IMG/VR virus record: IMGVR_UViG_2529293223_000008 | Direction: 5' to 3' (one strand) | Source: a virus | Lineage: Duplodnaviria; Heunggongvirae; Uroviricota; Caudoviricetes | Length of the DNA: 6,515 bases | In this document: piece by piece, positions 1 to 5,621 of the stretch | Numbering within the stretch: the first letter of the stretch is position 1 | Layout: every line of letters begins with the position of its first letter | Made by a program: the position numbers and the translations under genes | The notes under the pieces: model-generated | Database searches by the model: none | Told to the model about the DNA's origin: nothing | The model's input: only the letters and a program-made list of their open reading frames with translations

Positions 1-375
1 GGTAATCCATCCAGGCCTGTTGTTGCAGAGCTTGGCGATGATTCAGGCTGGCATTTTTTCAGCCAGAGGAATACAGATAACAGCATCACGTTCGCCGTAA
101 ACGGACAGGTAATTCCGTTAAATTACGGAAACTTTGATGCCCGCTATAAACATCGAACTGAGGGGGTACAGGATGTGCGATATGGCCATGAAATGTATTA
201 CAACCCTGGCAGCAACACCGTTTCATGGACGTTTCGCTCACCTTCGGGACACGGGCTGTCAGGGATATCGATATCGGATACCGGCCGTAACTCAGCGGAT
301 AACGTCAACGGTGTGTATTACCGACCGCTGCAAAAACTGATTAATGGCACCTGGTATAACGTAGCGAGTATTTAA
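1..375 (+). CDS. phage tail fibre protein, C-terminal fragment (5' end lies outside the window)
   Basis: Frame 1 is open from base 1 to the TAA at 373-375 (124 codons, no in-frame stop). The listed ORF 175..375 is only the internal-Met tail of this frame. The stop is 1 nt before the start of a tail-fibre-assembly gene, the usual stf-tfa arrangement. The C-terminus is rich in Gly/Ser/Asn/Tyr/Trp. Product call rests on context and composition, not on a motif I can name. Confidence 0.6.
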
Positions 376-376
376 T

Positions 377-904
377 ATGATGCACTTAAAGAACATAAAA
401 GCGGGTAACGCTAAAACGCCGGAACAGTATGAGTTAACAAAGAAGCACAGAGTCATCTGGCTTTACGCTGAAGACGGGAAAAACTGGTATGAGGAAGTGA
501 AGAACTTTCAGCCAGATACAATAAAGATTGTTTACGACGAAAATAATATTATTGTTGCCATTACCAAAGATACCTCAACGCTTAATCCTGAAGGTTTCAG
601 CGTTGTCGAAGTTCCTGATATTACCGCCAACCGACGTGCTGATGACTCCGGGAAGTGGATGTTTAAGGACGGAGCTGTGGTTAAGCGGATTTATACGGCA
701 GGCGAGCAGCAACAACAGGCCGAATCACAAAAGGCCGCGTTACTTTCCGAAGCTGAATCAGTCATCCAGCCGCTGGAACGCGCTGTCAGGCTGAATATGG
801 CAACAGACGAGGAACGCACACGACTGGAAGCATGGGAACGCTACAGTGTTCTGGTCAGCCGTGTGGACACTGCAAAACCTGAATGGCCACAAAAGCCCGG
901 GTGA
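377..904 (+). CDS. tfa: phage tail fibre assembly protein (Tfa family chaperone)
   Basis: 175 aa ORF. N-terminus [21 protein letters not shown]...[13 protein letters not shown]...FQPDT and C-terminus ...[30 protein letters not shown] follow the conserved pattern of enterobacterial Tfa proteins as I recall them (TfaE/TfaQ/TfaR, Mu U-like). Start is 1 nt after the upstream fibre gene stop. Length is typical for Tfa. Confidence 0.85.
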
Positions 905-909
905 AAACC

Positions 910-932
910 AAGGCCCGAACGCCAGGCCTTTT
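910..932 (+). terminator. weak candidate intrinsic terminator just after the tfa stop
   Basis: Seen in sequence: AAGGCC (910-915), a 9 nt loop, GGCCTT (925-930), running into TTTT (929-932). The stem is only 6 bp, so this is a weak call. Confidence 0.25.
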
Positions 933-1040
933 GCGAATACACCGGCATGCCAGAGTGGAAACAAATTGCGACGCACCAGTCCGTGCACATTTCTGACCGG
1001 GCAGCTATTCCAGAAAACAGCAGACAAGAGAGGTACAGAT

Positions 1041-1784
1041 ATGTGGTTTCCGGCAAAACTGATGCTTCCGACAGGTAATATCACCCCCATAACATGTTCA
1101 GCTATGGCCGTACATCCGTGGGATGTTGAAGCGGGGCACATTACGCCAGACGGTGCGTATTTAAGCCCCGTCAACGCAATAAACCACCTTAACAACAAAC
1201 TCCCGGGCCTGACCGAAAACAGCGATATCGCCATCATAATGGTAACAGGCAGCAATAATAACGATTTTATTCGTCAACTGTCAGCACTGGCAGACACACT
1301 CCCTTTACCCACTCTGACGCAGACGCTAAGACGCGCAAGAACACAGCTCACCCAGGCAATCACCAGAATGCAAATCCCGGCGACACCACAGAACGGACTG
1401 CCCGCTCCACAACCACTTATTGCCAGCACACTACAGAACAGCATCAGTAACCACACCGCGCTTAACGCTATGAAGGCCGAAGGGCTGAACTCTGTCGACT
1501 CACTGAAAAACGCGTTATCCGGTTTTCAGGCACAACGTCAACGGTTGCAGCAACAGATAATCGCTGAACTGGCAGGAGCAGGCGATAAAGTGGCAAAAGC
1601 ATTTGCGTTCGTGCACACCGGCGACGCCGTTTTAGCCCGCCGGGAAATGATGAAAAATATTCCGCACCCCACAGCTTCACTGACGTATGCACACCTGTTC
1701 GCAGGCGATCTTTCCGGGATGCTGAACTGGATAACGAAGGCAGAAAATGAGCCAGAACACGACAACGCCACTGCTGGCCCTTAA
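1041..1784 (+). CDS. hypothetical protein, 247 aa, first gene of a three-gene operon; function unknown
   Basis: Long ORF (track lists 846..1784). I place the start at ATG 1041 because AAGAGAGG (1026-1033) lies 7 nt upstream as a Shine-Dalgarno, and the 846 start would overlap tfa with no ribosome-binding site. ATG 1062 is a possible alternative. No catalytic or nucleotide-binding motif recognised. Ala/Leu/Gln-rich, probably helical C-terminal half. Confidence 0.6.
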   Translation: MWFPAKLMLPTGNITPITCSAMAVHPWDVEAGHITPDGAYLSPVNAINHLNNKLPGLTENSDIAIIMVTGSNNNDFIRQLSALADTLPLPTLTQTLRRARTQLTQAITRMQIPATPQNGLPAPQPLIASTLQNSISNHTALNAMKAEGLNSVDSLKNALSGFQAQRQRLQQQIIAELAGAGDKVAKAFAFVHTGDAVLARREMMKNIPHPTASLTYAHLFAGDLSGMLNWITKAENEPEHDNATAGP

Positions 1785-2313
1785 TGGTCAGATAATCCCG
1801 CTAAAACGCTTAAGTGTCAGCGTGAAGCTGACCATCAAAGACAAAGACGCTTCCGGAAAATCCTCATCAACAGCGACTTCAGAACAGGGTGTAAAAGCCA
1901 AGGAGCTGCAGATTTCCGGACTGATTCCGTTCACCCAGCCGGAAGCACTCACACGCTTATTTCGTCTGGCTGAAGCCAGAGCCGCTAACGGTGCACAACA
2001 GGTTTACCGCATCGCCAACATGGATGCTAAAGCGGTCAATATGAAGCAAGGGATTTTTTCCGGTGCCGTGGGCGCAACTCCTGAAACAGGCCTGATGGCA
2101 TGGAAAGTTGACTTCACTCTGAAAGAAAAACTCAGCAGTGCCGAAAAGGCGACAGGACGCGGCCCGGCTGGCAATCAGAGTGCTGAACAGCACGCACAGG
2201 CCGTCAAATCAGGTGGCAAAGGCGAAAAAAACGAAGAGCATGGCTGGTTCTGGAAAATGTCAGACAAACTCAATAACTGGATAGGCCCGGCAGGCAATGA
2301 AACCAATTCGTGA
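1747..2313 (+). CDS. hypothetical protein, 188 aa, Lys-rich and hydrophilic; function unknown
   Basis: ORF with GAAGG (1736-1740) 6 nt before ATG 1747. Overlaps the upstream gene by 38 nt and the downstream gene by 17 nt, consistent with translational coupling. Ser/Thr-rich N-terminus, Lys/Gly-rich middle, Trp-containing C-terminal tail (HGWFWKMSDKLNNWIGP). No recognisable motif; DKDASGKSS is not a valid Walker A. Confidence 0.6.
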   Translation: MSQNTTTPLLALNGQIIPLKRLSVSVKLTIKDKDASGKSSSTATSEQGVKAKELQISGLIPFTQPEALTRLFRLAEARAANGAQQVYRIANMDAKAVNMKQGIFSGAVGATPETGLMAWKVDFTLKEKLSSAEKATGRGPAGNQSAEQHAQAVKSGGKGEKNEEHGWFWKMSDKLNNWIGPAGNETNS

Positions 2314-3985
2314 TCTCTGCATTAACGGCAGGCGTTATCCTGTCGTGGAAGAAAACATCATGTTGCGTCTCAACGGCGCGGGAACCGGCTTTATCACCAT
2401 TAACGCCGCCGACAATACTCCCCCGCTACGCGGCAAACCCGTAGAGCTGTCCATCGGTTACAACGATCAGCCTGTAAAGTGGTTTTCGGGATATGTGGAA
2501 AGTGACAGTTGTACAGGCAGAGGGCTGCACAAGCTGATGGTGCGCGAAGCTGCTGCTATTCTGCAATACCCGCTCAACATCTCCATGCAGCATCCGACGC
2601 TGAAACAGGTCGCAGGACACATTGAAGGCAATACAGGTTTACGCATACAACTCCCGAAGGCAGGCTACACCACCACTCCGGTCCCTCATCTGACCCACAA
2701 TGGCAACGGTTATCAGCTGATGGCCATGCTTGGCCGCATATTCAGTATCCCGGATTACGTCTGGTATCCGTCGGTTGACGGCATCATCTACGCCGGAAGC
2801 TTTGCTGACTGCCGTTTTACAAAACGCCCTGCCAGATTGCCGGTCGATATCACCAGAGGTGATCACGGAGCAAATGGCTGGACAATACAGACGATTCCCA
2901 TGATGCGCCCCGGCGTGGTCATGAACGATCACCGTATAAATCAGGTACAGCTACAGGGCGACAGCATGATCATTAGCTGGAGTGATGGCCGTCAGTCGCC
3001 AGTACAACGCCAGATCGAAACCCTTTACCCCGAGATAGGCAACAAAACCCACCTTCCACGCATGGGACGCGTGATCTCACCAACTGAAAACACAACCCAG
3101 GGGGATTTGCATGATGAATTTCGCCCACGCTACGCCGTCAATGTGCAGTTGCTCGACGAGAACGGCACCCCCGATAAGAACACACCGGTATATAACGCCG
3201 TCCCCGTTCCTGTGCCAATGGCCGGCAATGAATCCGGGATATTCCAGTACCCGCCCCCAGGAACCATAGTTACACTGGCCCACGTTGACGGCAGGCCGGA
3301 TAAACCCATCATCACCGGCACTCACGCCAGCGGCCAGAGTCTGCCGGGAATAAAGCCCGGCGAACAACTACAACAGCAACGCGCAGAGGTATTCCAGCGT
3401 GTGCATACAGATGGCACATGGCAGCGTGAAACCGATCAGGTTATTCGTGAGAAATCCACCGACCGCATCATCCAGAACACAACGGAAACGCGCACCAGTA
3501 CCACTCGTAATATTACCGTAAAGGCCAACAACACCATAACGGTGCTCGGCACTCATAAGCTGATGAGCGGCCACATACAGCACATCGCAGACGGTGACTA
3601 TGCCGTAGCCGCCACGAAGAAACTGATACAGCACGCCGACAGCGCTGAACTCGACGTTACTCACCAGTGGCAAACCAGCACAGAAAGCACCACCCACAAT
3701 GTGGCGAAAACGCTGGAAGAAAAGATTGGCCGGATTAAAAAATCCGTCGCTGGCCAGATGCAACAGATCATCGCCCCGCAGGTCTGGTTTGGCAGCAATA
3801 CCATCAACACACTTAACCTCATGCTGGATCTTTGCGACACCGTTCAGCAACTGGCGCAGCTCACCGCACAACACACTCATACCAACAACGGGTCGTCACA
3901 GCCCACCAACAGCGGCAGCATAGACACGGTGGCATCAATGGCAGGCAACCTGAAAGCGAAGTACAGTACCGTGATTAAGCAGTAA
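2297..3985 (+). CDS. baseplate hub-spike-like protein (gp27/gp5- or VgrG-like architecture, inferred), 562 aa
   Basis: Long ORF. Residues about 255-345 (nt about 3059-3331) carry an OB-fold signature: RYAVNVQLLDENG...PMAGNESGIFQYPPPGTIVTLAHVDGRPDKPIITG, which parallels the conserved VgrG/gp5 block (RVKVxFxWD...WAG...PRIGxEVxVxFxxGDPDRPIITG) as I recall it. DGRPDKPIITG is at nt 3287-3319. Residues about 385-470 show Thr/Val-rich short beta-repeats (NITVKANNTITVLGTH...) like a spike beta-helix. The N-terminal 250 aa loosely fit a hub (gpD/gp27-like) pattern. Start could instead be ATG 2360 (Met22), which has GGAAG upstream. The ORF call is firm; the family call is from memory. Confidence 0.7.
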   Translation: MKPIRDLCINGRRYPVVEENIMLRLNGAGTGFITINAADNTPPLRGKPVELSIGYNDQPVKWFSGYVESDSCTGRGLHKLMVREAAAILQYPLNISMQHPTLKQVAGHIEGNTGLRIQLPKAGYTTTPVPHLTHNGNGYQLMAMLGRIFSIPDYVWYPSVDGIIYAGSFADCRFTKRPARLPVDITRGDHGANGWTIQTIPMMRPGVVMNDHRINQVQLQGDSMIISWSDGRQSPVQRQIETLYPEIGNKTHLPRMGRVISPTENTTQGDLHDEFRPRYAVNVQLLDENGTPDKNTPVYNAVPVPVPMAGNESGIFQYPPPGTIVTLAHVDGRPDKPIITGTHASGQSLPGIKPGEQLQQQRAEVFQRVHTDGTWQRETDQVIREKSTDRIIQNTTETRTSTTRNITVKANNTITVLGTHKLMSGHIQHIADGDYAVAATKKLIQHADSAELDVTHQWQTSTESTTHNVAKTLEEKIGRIKKSVAGQMQQIIAPQVWFGSNTINTLNLMLDLCDTVQQLAQLTAQHTHTNNGSSQPTNSGSIDTVASMAGNLKAKYSTVIKQ

Positions 3986-4117: not shown

Positions 4118-4133
4118 GCCCGTCGCGACGGGC
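4118..4133. other. perfect 16-nt GC-rich palindrome GCCCGTCGCGACGGGC (hairpin; possible minus-strand terminator or protein-binding site)
   Basis: Seen in sequence: fully self-complementary. On the minus strand it is followed by a moderately U-rich tract (TTTCGTCTGGTT); on the plus strand by ATTCCCCC. Sits in the gap between the operon and IS150. Confidence 0.35.
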
Positions 4134-4172: not shown

Positions 4173-4175
4173 CGC
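4173..4175. repeat. target-site duplication, left copy (CGC)
   Basis: CGC immediately outside the left IS150 end, identical to 5619-5621 outside the right end. A 3 bp duplication is expected for IS3-family elements. Confidence 0.8.
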
Positions 4176-4199
4176 TGTACTGCACCCATTTTGTTGGAC
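4176..4199 (+). repeat. IS150 left terminal inverted repeat
   Basis: TGTACTGCACCCATTTTGTTGGAC matches the reverse complement of the right end (TGTACTGACCCCAAAAAGTTGGAC) at about 18 of 24 positions. Confidence 0.85.
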
Positions 4200-4222
4200 G
4201 ATGAAATGGAATAGCCCCTGAT

Positions 4223-4744
4223 ATGTCAAAGCCAAAATACCCTTTTGAAAAGCGCCTTGAAGTAGTGAATCACTACTTCACTACTGATGATGGTTACAGG
4301 ATCATCTCGGCACGTTTTGGTGTCCCCCGAACCCAGGTCAGGACATGGGTTGCCCTCTATGAAAAACATAGAGAAAAAGGCTTAATTCCCAAACCTAAAG
4401 GTGTTAGTGCTGATCCAGAGTTGCGTATTAAGGTCGTGAAAGCTGTGATCGAGCAGCACATGTCCCTTAATCAGGCTGCTGCTCACTTTATGCTTGCTGG
4501 TAGTGGTTCTGTAGCCAGGTGGCTGAAGGTTTATGAAGAGCGCGGAGAAGCTGGTTTACGCGCGCTCAAGATTGGCACCAAAAGAAACATTGCAATATCA
4601 GTTGATCCAGAAAAAGCGGCATCAGCATTGGAGCTGTCAAAAGACCGACGCATTGAGGATCTTGAAAGGCAAGTTCGATTTCTTGAAACGCGGCTTGTGT
4701 ATCTAAAAAAGCTGAAAGCCTTAGCTCATCCCACGAAAAAGTGA
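4223..4744 (+). CDS. insJ: IS150 OrfA (InsJ), helix-turn-helix DNA-binding transposase component
   Basis: 173 aa ORF, MSKPKYPFEKRLEVVNHYFTTDDGYRIISARFGVPRTQVRTWVALYEK..., recognised as IS150 InsJ. Contains the frameshift window near its 3' end. Confidence 0.95.
   Translation: MSKPKYPFEKRLEVVNHYFTTDDGYRIISARFGVPRTQVRTWVALYEKHREKGLIPKPKGVSADPELRIKVVKAVIEQHMSLNQAAAHFMLAGSGSVARWLKVYEERGEAGLRALKIGTKRNIAISVDPEKAASALELSKDRRIEDLERQVRFLETRLVYLKKLKALAHPTKK
4705..4711 (+). other. programmed -1 ribosomal frameshift heptamer A-AAA-AAG (gives the InsJK fusion transposase)
   Basis: In the insJ frame the codons are CTA-AAA-AAG. A -1 slip enters the insK frame, which is open through the GTG at 4741 to the stop at 5592. 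The IS3-family frameshift mechanism is established knowledge. Confidence 0.85.
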
Positions 4745-5592
4745 AAGTACTCAACGAGCTAAGGCAGTTTTATCCTCTTGATGAGCTTCTCAGGGCTGCG
4801 GAGATACCGCGCAGTACGTTTTATTACCATCTAAAGGCTCTCAGCAAGCCTGACAAGTATGCGGACGTTAAAAAGCGTATTGGTGAGATTTATCATGAGA
4901 ATAGAGGCCGATACGGATACCGTAGGGTAACGCTGTCTCTTCATCGAGAAGGGAAACAGATTAACCATAAAGCTGTTCAGCGCCTGATGGGAATCCTCTC
5001 ACTTAAGGCAGCGATTAAGGTCAAGCGATACCGCTCTTACAGAGGAGAGGTAGGGCAAACCGCCCCCAATGTTCTCCAAAGAGATTTCAAGGCTACGCGG
5101 CCAAACGAGAAGTGGGTTACCGATGTTACTGAATTTGCAGTCAATGGGCGCAAGCTGTATTTGTCTCCAGTAATAGATCTCTTCAACAACGAAGTTATTT
5201 CTTACAGCCTTTCGGAAAGACCAGTGATGAACATGGTCGAGAATATGCTCGATCAGGCATTCAAAAAGCTTAATCCTCACGAGCATCCTGTTCTGCACTC
5301 TGACCAGGGATGGCAGTATCGTATGAGAAGATATCAAAATATCCTTAAAGAACATGGTATTAAACAAAGCATGTCCAGAAAAGGCAATTGTCTGGATAAT
5401 GCTGTGGTGGAGTGTTTCTTTGGAACCTTAAAATCGGAGTGTTTTTATCTTGATGAGTTCAGTAATATAAGCGAACTGAAGGATGCTGTTACGGAATATA
5501 TTGAATACTACAACAGCAGAAGAATTAGCCTGAAATTAAAAGGTCTGACTCCAATTGAATATCGGAATCAGACCTATATGCCTCGTGTTTAA
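4741..5592 (+). CDS. insK: IS150 OrfB (InsK), DDE transposase catalytic domain; made mainly as an OrfAB fusion by -1 frameshifting
   Basis: 283 aa [34 protein letters not shown]...[18 protein letters not shown], recognised as IS150 InsK. The track's initiating Met is a GTG overlapping the insJ stop, so the true N-terminus is supplied by the fusion. Confidence 0.95.
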
Positions 5593-5594
5593 CT

Positions 5595-5618
5595 GTCCAA
5601 CTTTTTGGGGTCAGTACA
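5595..5618 (-). repeat. IS150 right terminal inverted repeat
   Basis: Reverse complement reads TGTACTGACCCCAAAAAGTTGGAC, pairing with the left repeat. The element ends in CA. Confidence 0.85.
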
Positions 5619-5621
5619 CGC
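5619..5621. repeat. target-site duplication, right copy (CGC)
   Basis: CGC immediately outside the right IS150 end, matching 4173-4175. Confidence 0.8.

Follow-up and report, generated by a model that had tools for sequence, protein, structure and literature searches.

Three genes downstream of a P2-type tfa gene very probably form the distal end of the tail operon of an HP1-subgroup prophage

The stretch of DNA analysed here (6,515 nucleotides, hereafter the window) contains three overlapping genes on one strand, downstream of a tail fibre assembly gene (tfa), and the question was whether these genes are accessory cargo or belong to the tail itself. A preliminary description had placed them in a cargo position and offered an accessory module as one reading, with an atypically ordered structural block as the fallback. 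It was the fallback that the analysis bore out. The block is very probably the distal end of the late tail operon of a prophage in the HP1 subgroup of the P2 family (Peduoviridae), and the counterpart of HP1 orf33-orf34-orf35; its order is atypical only by comparison with P2, T4 and Mu, and is standard in the HP1 subgroup. Coordinates are collected in Table 1.

Table 1. Features of the window, with the evidence for each.
Feature	Position	Strand	Evidence or remark
tfa, P2 gpG type	377..904	+	Pfam Caudo_TAP, 7e-37; 88% identical to P2 gpG over 174 aa
tfa-ORF1 spacer, 136 nt	905..1040	+	Candidate recombination joint
ORF1, 247 aa, HP1 orf33 family	1041..1784	+	phrog_1677, 1e-41
ORF2, 188 aa, HP1 orf34 family	1747..2313	+	PF25759, 6.7e-49; phrog_1398
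ORF3, 562 aa, HP1 orf35 family	2297..3985	+	phrog_2258 'baseplate protein', 1e-195, full length
ORF3 residues 1-234, predicted hub ('spike-mounting') domain, P2 gpD-like	2297..2998	+	hhalign; literature HHpred
ORF3 residues 235-562, predicted central spike	2999..3985	+	Pfam, TIGR01646, PDB profile matches, invariant tip residues
GC-rich palindromic hairpin GCCCGTCGCGACGGGC	4118..4133		133 nt past ORF3 stop; terminator scan, - strand only

The three ORFs, their sizes, their common strand and their overlaps of 38 nt (ORF1/ORF2, 1747–1784) and 17 nt (ORF2/ORF3, 2297–2313) were found in the ORF listing as previously described. Each had also been credited with its own ribosome-binding site; this held for ORF1, which has a good one (GAGAGG, 7 nt 5' of the ATG), while only weak sites were seen before ORF2 (AAGG) and ORF3 (AGG). 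Weak ribosome-binding sites are usual in overlapping genes with translational coupling. The position of ORF1 behind tfa was likewise as stated, the distance being 136 nt by count and not 137 bp. The reading frame of ORF1 is open from 846, and its ATG at 1041 is, judging from the sequences, a better start than that assigned by PGAP in E. coli relatives (corresponding to 1104 in the window), because M1, W2 and an invariant C19 are shared by homologues as distant as 46% identity. All three ORFs are genuine genes and did not arise by chance; their families were matched with E-values of 1e-41, 7e-49 and 1e-195 respectively, and full-length homologues of 247, 188 and 562 aa occur in Salmonella, Klebsiella and Edwardsiella. 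The GC content of the block (0.50–0.58) is continuous with that of the flanking tail genes.

The family of ORF1 also takes in HP1 orf33, K139 orf37 and phiO18P gp44, and ORF1 is classed as a tail- or baseplate-associated protein. The earlier statement that neither of the first two products has a nameable domain stands for ORF1, for which Pfam has no family, and not for ORF2; the Pfam family of the latter is named 'HP1_ORF34 baseplate complex protein'. ORF2 consists of a conserved core (residues 10–135) followed by a low-complexity tail, and its family has 318 representatives among 1.84 billion protein clusters. The three HP1 proteins (P51737, P51738 and P51739) measure 258, 187 and 533 aa, as against 247, 188 and 562 aa in the window, and belong to the same families. 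Further counterparts of the trio are K139 orf37-39, phiO18P gp44-46, ESSI-2 gp05/03/01 and vB_YenM_324 gp33-35. Order, strand, a location immediately behind tfa in the last part of the late region, and the overlapping or abutting of genes are common to the HP1-type phages and the window; identity, however, is only 33–48% for orf34 and orf35. ORF1 is approximately 35% identical to its homologues in enteric phages, and was connected to non-enteric orf33 homologues by profile only; the enteric orf33 proteins are shorter at the N-terminus than the Vibrio/Haemophilus type by approximately 55 residues.

The arrangement of these genes was found to be constant. HP1, ESSI-2, K139, phiO18P and vB_YenM_324, which represent five genera, all have the order fibre-tfa-orf33-orf34-orf35 with cos or a terminator next, and the window fits this order, with the three homologues last in the late region on one strand. 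Searches by tblastn returned 75 phage records each for ORF2 and ORF3, with equal counts per host genus, and wherever both searches listed a record, its ORF2 homologue lay directly upstream of the orf35 homologue. Both the content and the position of the block were invariant across HP1-subgroup phages of Haemophilus, Vibrio, Aeromonas, Pasteurella, Pseudomonas, Pseudoalteromonas and enteric bacteria. A synteny comparison had been proposed as a check for variable cargo; in the five reference phages, the region downstream of tfa was conserved core instead. In the literature on HP1 orf34/orf35, vB_YenM_324 and K139 orf39 proteomics, virion mass spectrometry was found for the HP1-like phage ACA1 only. 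Homologues of orf33 (by 2 spectra only), a gpD-like and a gpV-like protein were detected in ACA1 virions, while the orf34 homologue was not (PMC10612066 Table S2); the ACA1 proteins are distant from those of the window, and have 16–31% identity to HP1 by HHpred. The preliminary description had named conservation, synteny and detection in virions as the marks of an ordinary structural module, and this is essentially what was observed, save for the orf34 homologue in that sole proteome.

ORF3 is, on profile comparisons, a putative gpD-like hub domain fused to a gpV/VgrG-like spike, and the earlier description of it as a hub-spike protein was upheld. When the N-terminus of the ORF3 family was compared with the P2 gpD family by hhalign, 141 collinear columns were aligned from both N-termini with an E-value of 0.005, while reversed and mismatched controls gave 0.27–0.54. 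The Pfam model Phage_GPD matched neither ORF3 nor its family members. A family comprising the spike only (phrog_4011) begins at ORF3 residue 235, and beyond this point there is an OB fold (approximately residues 254–355, nt 3056–3361), with which the VgrG model TIGR01646 was aligned, and then a beta-helix or helical shaft. Pfam Phage_base_V (PF04717) was identified in 12 of 15 members of the family (best E = 7.6e-5), and Gp5_C and GpV Apex in some; ORF3 itself scored 20.8 bits against PF04717, under the Pfam gathering score of 23.8. Against the PDB, the ORF3 profile matched VgrG spikes at residues 288–458 (E = 4.6e-4 to 4e-3), and ORF3 as a single protein reached an E-value of only approximately 0.1, for its spike. 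The tip carries the motif H526-T-H528 (nt 3872–3880), which was present in all 15 sequences (H526, H528 and P536 being invariant) and is predicted to form a metal-binding apex; the tip of P2 gpV reads LHTHKHPG, and an H-T-H iron motif has been noted for a K139-like spike (PMC8537503).

ORF3 resembles P2 gpD and gpV in its putatively gpD-like N-terminus, its gpV-like OB fold and its H-x-H tip, despite a sequence identity of approximately 10% and the lack of any significant BLASTP alignment with either protein. HP1 orf35 has also been described as a fusion of gpD and gpV, by HHpred at 10% identity (PMC10612066 Table S1). The role assigned to ORF3 would be the same, namely the sole hub and spike of a contractile tail of the P2 family. 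The layout differs, since the V-W-J-I-H-G operon of P2 starts with V, and U and D are the last genes of its F operon, whereas in the window hub and spike are one polypeptide encoded after tfa. A fused hub, OB fold and beta-helix are also the architecture of T6SS VgrG, T4 gp27-gp5 and Afp8/Pvc8, and the profile matches of ORF3 to VgrG, Pvc8 and Afp8 over residues 288–458 were weak and consistent.

The remaining tail and head genes lie outside the window and were read from two relatives, the E. coli copy L001 (99.7% identical) and L016. Both combine an HP1-type upstream module (Orf24-type tube, DUF2590, J and I) with P2-family head genes. The 99.7%-identical prophage encodes a sheath, tube, chaperone, tape measure, DUF2590 (gpW-like) protein, J, I, fibre and tfa, with no second hub, spike or OB-fold gene, and ORF3 was the sole candidate for hub and spike in this copy and in L016. 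As the equivalent of both gpD and gpV, ORF3 would provide the central baseplate hub and the membrane-piercing spike in one polypeptide. By analogy with P2 gpV, T4 gp27-gp5 and VgrG, three copies would lie on the tail axis and plug the tube, and the trimer would nucleate the wedges of gpW/J/I type encoded upstream; sheath contraction would then force ORF3 through the outer membrane, its putative metal-binding H-x-H tip leading.

ORF1 and ORF2 would be hub-associated tail proteins and the constant companions of ORF3. The predicted structure of ORF1, of moderate confidence (pLDDT 65), matched none of the known folds, and that of ORF2 had a pLDDT of 42. Searches of the PDB returned nothing for ORF1 as a single sequence and no significant match for its profile; similarly, there was no match for ORF2 as a single protein, nor for a profile of 127 orf34 sequences. 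When orf33 and orf34 were compared with the HP1-type tube, P2 FII, gpX and gpW by hhalign, nothing emerged beyond one weak signal between the orf34 N-terminus and the HP1 tube (E = 0.03), which was lost with a deep profile. BLASTP gave no significant alignment between ORF2 and P2 gpU, and neither shallow nor deep profiles of ORF2 matched gpU (PF06995) better than reversed controls; this negative result is weak, because the hhalign set-up used also misses accepted homologue pairs, the positive controls among them. P2 gpU and gpX have no demonstrable homologue in the window, where orf33 and orf34 are found instead. Most likely, ORF1 and ORF2 would fill, in one allocation or the other, the roles of the tube initiator gpU and the hub-wedge glue gpX, and both may stay in the virion. 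One metagenomic protein in which an orf33-family sequence is fused to an orf34-family sequence hints that the two act together. To our knowledge, no HP1-type baseplate structure has been solved. It is conceivable, if rather unlikely, that orf33 and orf34 act in the baseplate or in hub assembly through folds that are absent from P2, Mu, T4 and T6SS, and so represent another solution to tube initiation and the hub-wedge connection.

The window departs from the reference phages in the 136-nt spacer before ORF1 and in the P2-type fibre and tfa genes upstream; in HP1, K139, phiO18P, ESSI-2 and vB_YenM_324 there is no such gap, tfa and the orf33 homologue being adjoining or overlapping genes. DNA similarity to P2 ends at the tfa stop codon, and the spacer is probably the joint at which recombination brought together a P2-type fibre/tfa cassette and an HP1-type tail module. 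A promoter and terminator scan of the spacer identified neither a sigma-70-like promoter nor a terminator on the + strand, and there was no Ogr-type TGT-N12-ACA site within it; the single match to this motif in the whole window was inside ORF1, in line with chance expectation. A search of the whole window against Rfam gave no match. tfa and the three genes are probably contained in one late transcript, with transcription reading through from the J-I-fibre-tfa genes, and translation is probably coupled across the two overlaps.

Downstream of the block, IS150 (4176–5618) was confirmed, beginning 190 nt past the ORF3 stop and bounded by a 3-bp target duplication (CGC); it has left the block untouched. 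The terminator scan scored the hairpin between the two for the - strand alone, where its T-run lies. An annotated terminator of K139 (T39) occupies the equivalent place, after orf39, and on the + strand the hairpin may mark where the late transcript ends. The region after orf35 varies among HP1-type phages, being occupied by HicAB in phi3, by four small genes in vB_YenM_324, and by hok and IS150 in the window.

An accessory (moron) module that is built around a spike-like protein, occupies a cargo slot behind tfa and serves for superinfection exclusion, decoy or delivery is very unlikely. That impression arose because the prophage carries a P2-type tfa and P2 has cargo at this point, where fun(Z), a gene for lysogenic conversion, follows G directly. 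The separation of ORF1 from tfa by a spacer, the absence of an assigned fold for ORF1 and ORF2, and the survival of three intact ORFs in a defective prophage could all be cited in its favour. The likeness to the P2 slot, however, extends to a P2-type tfa with DNA beyond it that lacks homology to P2; the slot in P2 contains one non-essential gene on the opposite strand behind a terminator, while in the window there are three tail genes on the same strand with no terminator between (by the scan). The invariance of the block in HP1-subgroup genomes is the opposite of what variable cargo would display, and the block provides the only hub and spike that the tail has. It also lacks its own promoter and a distinct GC content, homologues of two to three of its products are found in virions, and a search of all three proteins against PADLOC-DB 2.0, one of the checks previously proposed, gave zero matches at E-values up to 1. 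Still less credible is the reading of ORF3 as an orphan type VI secretion VgrG preceded by two adaptor or effector genes. It draws on four E. coli records in which PGAP names the product 'type VI secretion system Vgr family protein', and on weak matches to TIGR01646, TIGR03361 and VgrG crystal structures. These matches were far below the NCBIfam cut-offs (29.8 bits against 121.8 for TIGR01646, and 23.3 against 186 for TIGR03361), and the likeness is limited to the OB/beta-helix region that is common to phage spikes and VgrG. The N-terminal 250 residues of ORF3 are shorter than the gp27-like part of VgrG and have no detectable similarity to it, and ORF3 ends in an H-T-H tip rather than a PAAR-capped blunt end; moreover, its neighbours are all phage tail genes, with no T6SS genes, and full-length homologues occur in isolated phages.

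Whether these tail genes are now functionless relics of a decaying prophage, or are kept by the host for particles such as tailocins, is a reading for and against which the balance is about even. The E. coli relatives are without integrase (int), repressor (cI) and replication (rep) genes, and their left border is occupied by IS600, HTH and PIN genes; L016 has a split baseplate J gene and a split fibre gene, IS150 lies close behind the block in the window, and the block was present in just 6 of 5426 complete E. coli genomes. Against decay, all three ORFs are full length; the block differs from its E. coli copy by 10 nucleotides and 3 amino-acid changes, too few to measure selection, and the window covers only 6.5 kb of the prophage, its remnant state being read from relatives. 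The retention of head genes in the E. coli relative is a poor fit to tailocins. The prophage appears defective in this lineage and the three genes may be out of use; their present-day function is doubtful because only a remnant of the prophage is left in those relatives that were examined.

Several database names attached to these protein families are misleading ('Vgr family', 'DNA-binding protein', 'adenine glycosylase' and 'head completion protein'). The three genes that follow tfa in HP1-subgroup, P2-like prophages are core tail genes, and scans of such prophages for cargo or defence islands would be better aimed at the region after the orf35-type spike gene.

The three genes behind tfa, counterparts of HP1 orf33, orf34 and orf35 (here ORF1, ORF2 and ORF3; together, the block), had been read in the preliminary description mainly as an accessory module in a cargo slot. 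This reading was rejected. Fibre gene, tfa and orf33-, orf34- and orf35-like genes, then cos/terminator, followed one another in identical order in all five complete genomes compared (Haemophilus phage HP1, Cronobacter phage ESSI-2, Vibrio phage K139, Aeromonas phage phiO18P and Yersinia phage vB_YenM_324), and PADLOC defence models matched none of the three proteins. In tblastn searches ORF2 and ORF3 were each found in 75 phage records, with identical per-genus counts, and their matches adjoined in every record present in both tables. ORF1 was more divergent, matching 18 records, all enteric; the remaining homologues were reached only through a PHROG profile. Given the constant order and co-occurrence, the block was interpreted as a core module rather than variable cargo. 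The variable part among HP1-type phages lay 3' of orf35, where HicAB was found in Pseudomonas phage phi3, four small genes in vB_YenM_324, and hok and IS150 in the window. The fallback reading, an oddly ordered structural block, was correct; within the HP1 subgroup this order is the norm, and databases and literature already describe it.

The block looked like cargo because the tfa here is of the P2 G type (88% identical to gpG, the P2 tfa product), and in P2 the gene that directly follows G is fun(Z), which acts in lysogenic conversion. DNA similarity to P2 stopped at the tfa stop codon, which, with a P2-like tfa amid an HP1-type tail module, indicates a mosaic joint. The prophage combines an HP1-type tail module with an acquired P2-type fibre/tfa cassette, and the spacer between tfa and ORF1 is probably the joint of that swap. 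GC content was continuous across the spacer; no promoter-like, terminator-like or Ogr-type sites were found on its + strand.

Features of the window, with positions and strand
Feature	Position	Strand	Details
Tail fibre gene, 3' end	to 375	+	from ORF listing
tfa	377-904	+	
tfa-ORF1 spacer	905-1040		136 nt
ORF1	1041-1784	+	247 aa
ORF2	1747-2313	+	188 aa
ORF3	2297-3985	+	562 aa
IS150	4176-5618		ends TGTACTGCAC...GTCAGTACA exact; 3-bp target duplication CGC (4173-4175, 5619-5621)
Hok/Gef-family toxin ORF	6372-6515	+	47 aa, MSQKSLIAITTLCVTAILIIWMLQGSLCEIRMSFWGAEFAAFLQCRQ; ends exactly at window end

The earlier account of three overlapping, same-strand ORFs after tfa, with IS150 downstream, was accurate in its coordinates and overlaps (38 nt for ORF1/ORF2, 17 nt for ORF2/ORF3). 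Of the ribosome-binding sites it assigned to each gene, that of ORF1 was strong (GAGAGG), but those of ORF2 and ORF3 were weak, as translational coupling predicts. For the E. coli orthologue of ORF1, PGAP places the start at an internal ATG (window 1104; 226 aa), which drops 21 conserved residues (window 1041-1103), including the invariant C19. M1, W2 and C19 were kept in homologues down to 46% identity, and the ATG at 1041 follows the strong Shine-Dalgarno sequence; the longer reading is therefore probably correct.

The suggestion that the third product resembles a hub-spike protein was borne out. The OB domain of VgrG/gpV aligned with ORF3 residues 254-355 (TIGR01646), solved VgrG spikes were matched by the ORF3 family profile (residues 288-458, E = 4.6e-4 to 4e-3), and, among 15 family members, 12 contained Pfam Phage_base_V and a few had Gp5_C repeats and a GpV Apex motif. 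At the tip, H526-T-H528 and P536 were invariant, resembling the HTHKH tip of the P2 spike, gpV; the same H-T-H iron motif has been noted in a K139-like spike (PMC8537503). The N-terminal 250 residues were collinear with the first 180 of the family of gpD, the P2 baseplate hub (hhalign E = 0.005, 141 columns; reversed or mismatched controls, E = 0.27-0.54). PHROG 2258 'baseplate protein' matched ORF3 end to end (1e-195), while the spike-only PHROG 4011 matched from residue 235. This anatomy agrees with the published assignment of HP1 orf35 as a gpD+gpV fusion (PMC10612066, Table S1), whereas in the HP1-like phage ACA1 the gpD-like and gpV-like parts are separate proteins, gp48 and gp49 (PMC10612066).

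The E. coli prophage with a near-identical block encoded portal, terminase, capsid, sheath, an HP1 Orf24-type tube, a lysis cassette, chaperone, tape measure, DUF2590 (a gpW-like sheath initiator), J, I, fibre and tfa; besides ORF3, no hub, OB-fold or spike signature was found in it. To our knowledge, every contractile tail needs a hub and a spike to assemble, and with no other candidate gene ORF3 must therefore supply both.

ORF2 was a clear member of PF25759, 'Bacteriophage HP1 ORF34 baseplate complex protein' (6.7e-49). An exhaustive search for orf34 returned only 318 representatives among 1.84 billion clusters, and a 127-sequence profile made from it matched no solved structure. Against the P2 tube initiator, gpU, this profile scored no better than controls, in a procedure that also misses the accepted HP1 tube/P2 FII and DUF2590/gpW pairs, so that this negative carries no information. 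ORF1 belonged to PHROG 1677 (1e-41), a family without assigned function that includes HP1 orf33, K139 orf37, phiO18P gp44, vB_YenM_324 gp33 and ESSI-2 gp05. One metagenomic protein (P0231, 397 aa) joined an orf33-like region (phrog_1677, residues 49-207) to an orf34-like region (phrog_1398, residues 211-384) in a single chain; such a chain may reflect natural fusion or the merging of gene calls, and hints weakly that the two proteins act together.

Names across database records were inconsistent for the orf34 family ('DNA-binding protein', 'adenine glycosylase', 'nucleoid DNA-binding protein'), and orf35 relatives went by 'Vgr family protein' or 'head completion protein'. The tests in this analysis supported no such name. 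In the RefSeq record of phi3, annotation covers just the C-terminal 323 aa of the 557-aa orf35-type ORF (8891-10564 of locus L006) and omits the orf33-like gene.

Virion evidence for the block comes from the literature, on the distant relative ACA1 only. Mass spectrometry of its virions detected the orf33 homologue gp46 (2 spectra), gp48 (5 spectra) and gp49 (2 spectra); the orf34 homologue gp47, labelled 'gpU?' by the authors, was not detected (PMC10612066).

IS150 lay 190 nt downstream of the stop codon of ORF3. Compared with the E. coli RMDEC332 locus, the window was 99.7% identical to the left of the element and 95.0%, with 7 gaps, to its right, so that the element stands at a change in divergence. 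Several short-read contigs (L019, L022 and L023; samples GCA_042971835.1, DRR015989 and SRR10997230) encoded the exact ORF3 protein and ended 148-190 nt past its stop, at or near the window insertion point, which suggests the same insertion in those samples. The hok gene stayed beside ORF3 in two assemblies whose downstream chromosomal neighbours differed (tRNA-Leu/Cys/Gly-pgsA versus ihfA-pheT). It thus appears to move together with the prophage end, and it is a better cargo candidate than the block. Sok RNA was not found by Rfam at the gathering threshold.

Six E. coli genomes carried the block, 99.7% identical and without IS150, as the right-hand end of a P2-family prophage; these copies lacked integrase, repressor and replication genes. 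At the RMDEC332 locus (1-3100, left of an Ogr-like gene), PIN and HTH genes, a partial plasmid-partition gene and IS600 replaced rep, cI and int. In another assembly (L016, 4363-8079), both J, a baseplate gene, and the tail fibre gene were split into two ORFs each. In the relatives examined, the prophage is a remnant. ORF1-ORF3 were intact; 10 nucleotide and 3 amino-acid differences separated them from the E. coli copy, too few for judging selection. The genes of the block are structurally tail genes, yet they may no longer be in use in this lineage.
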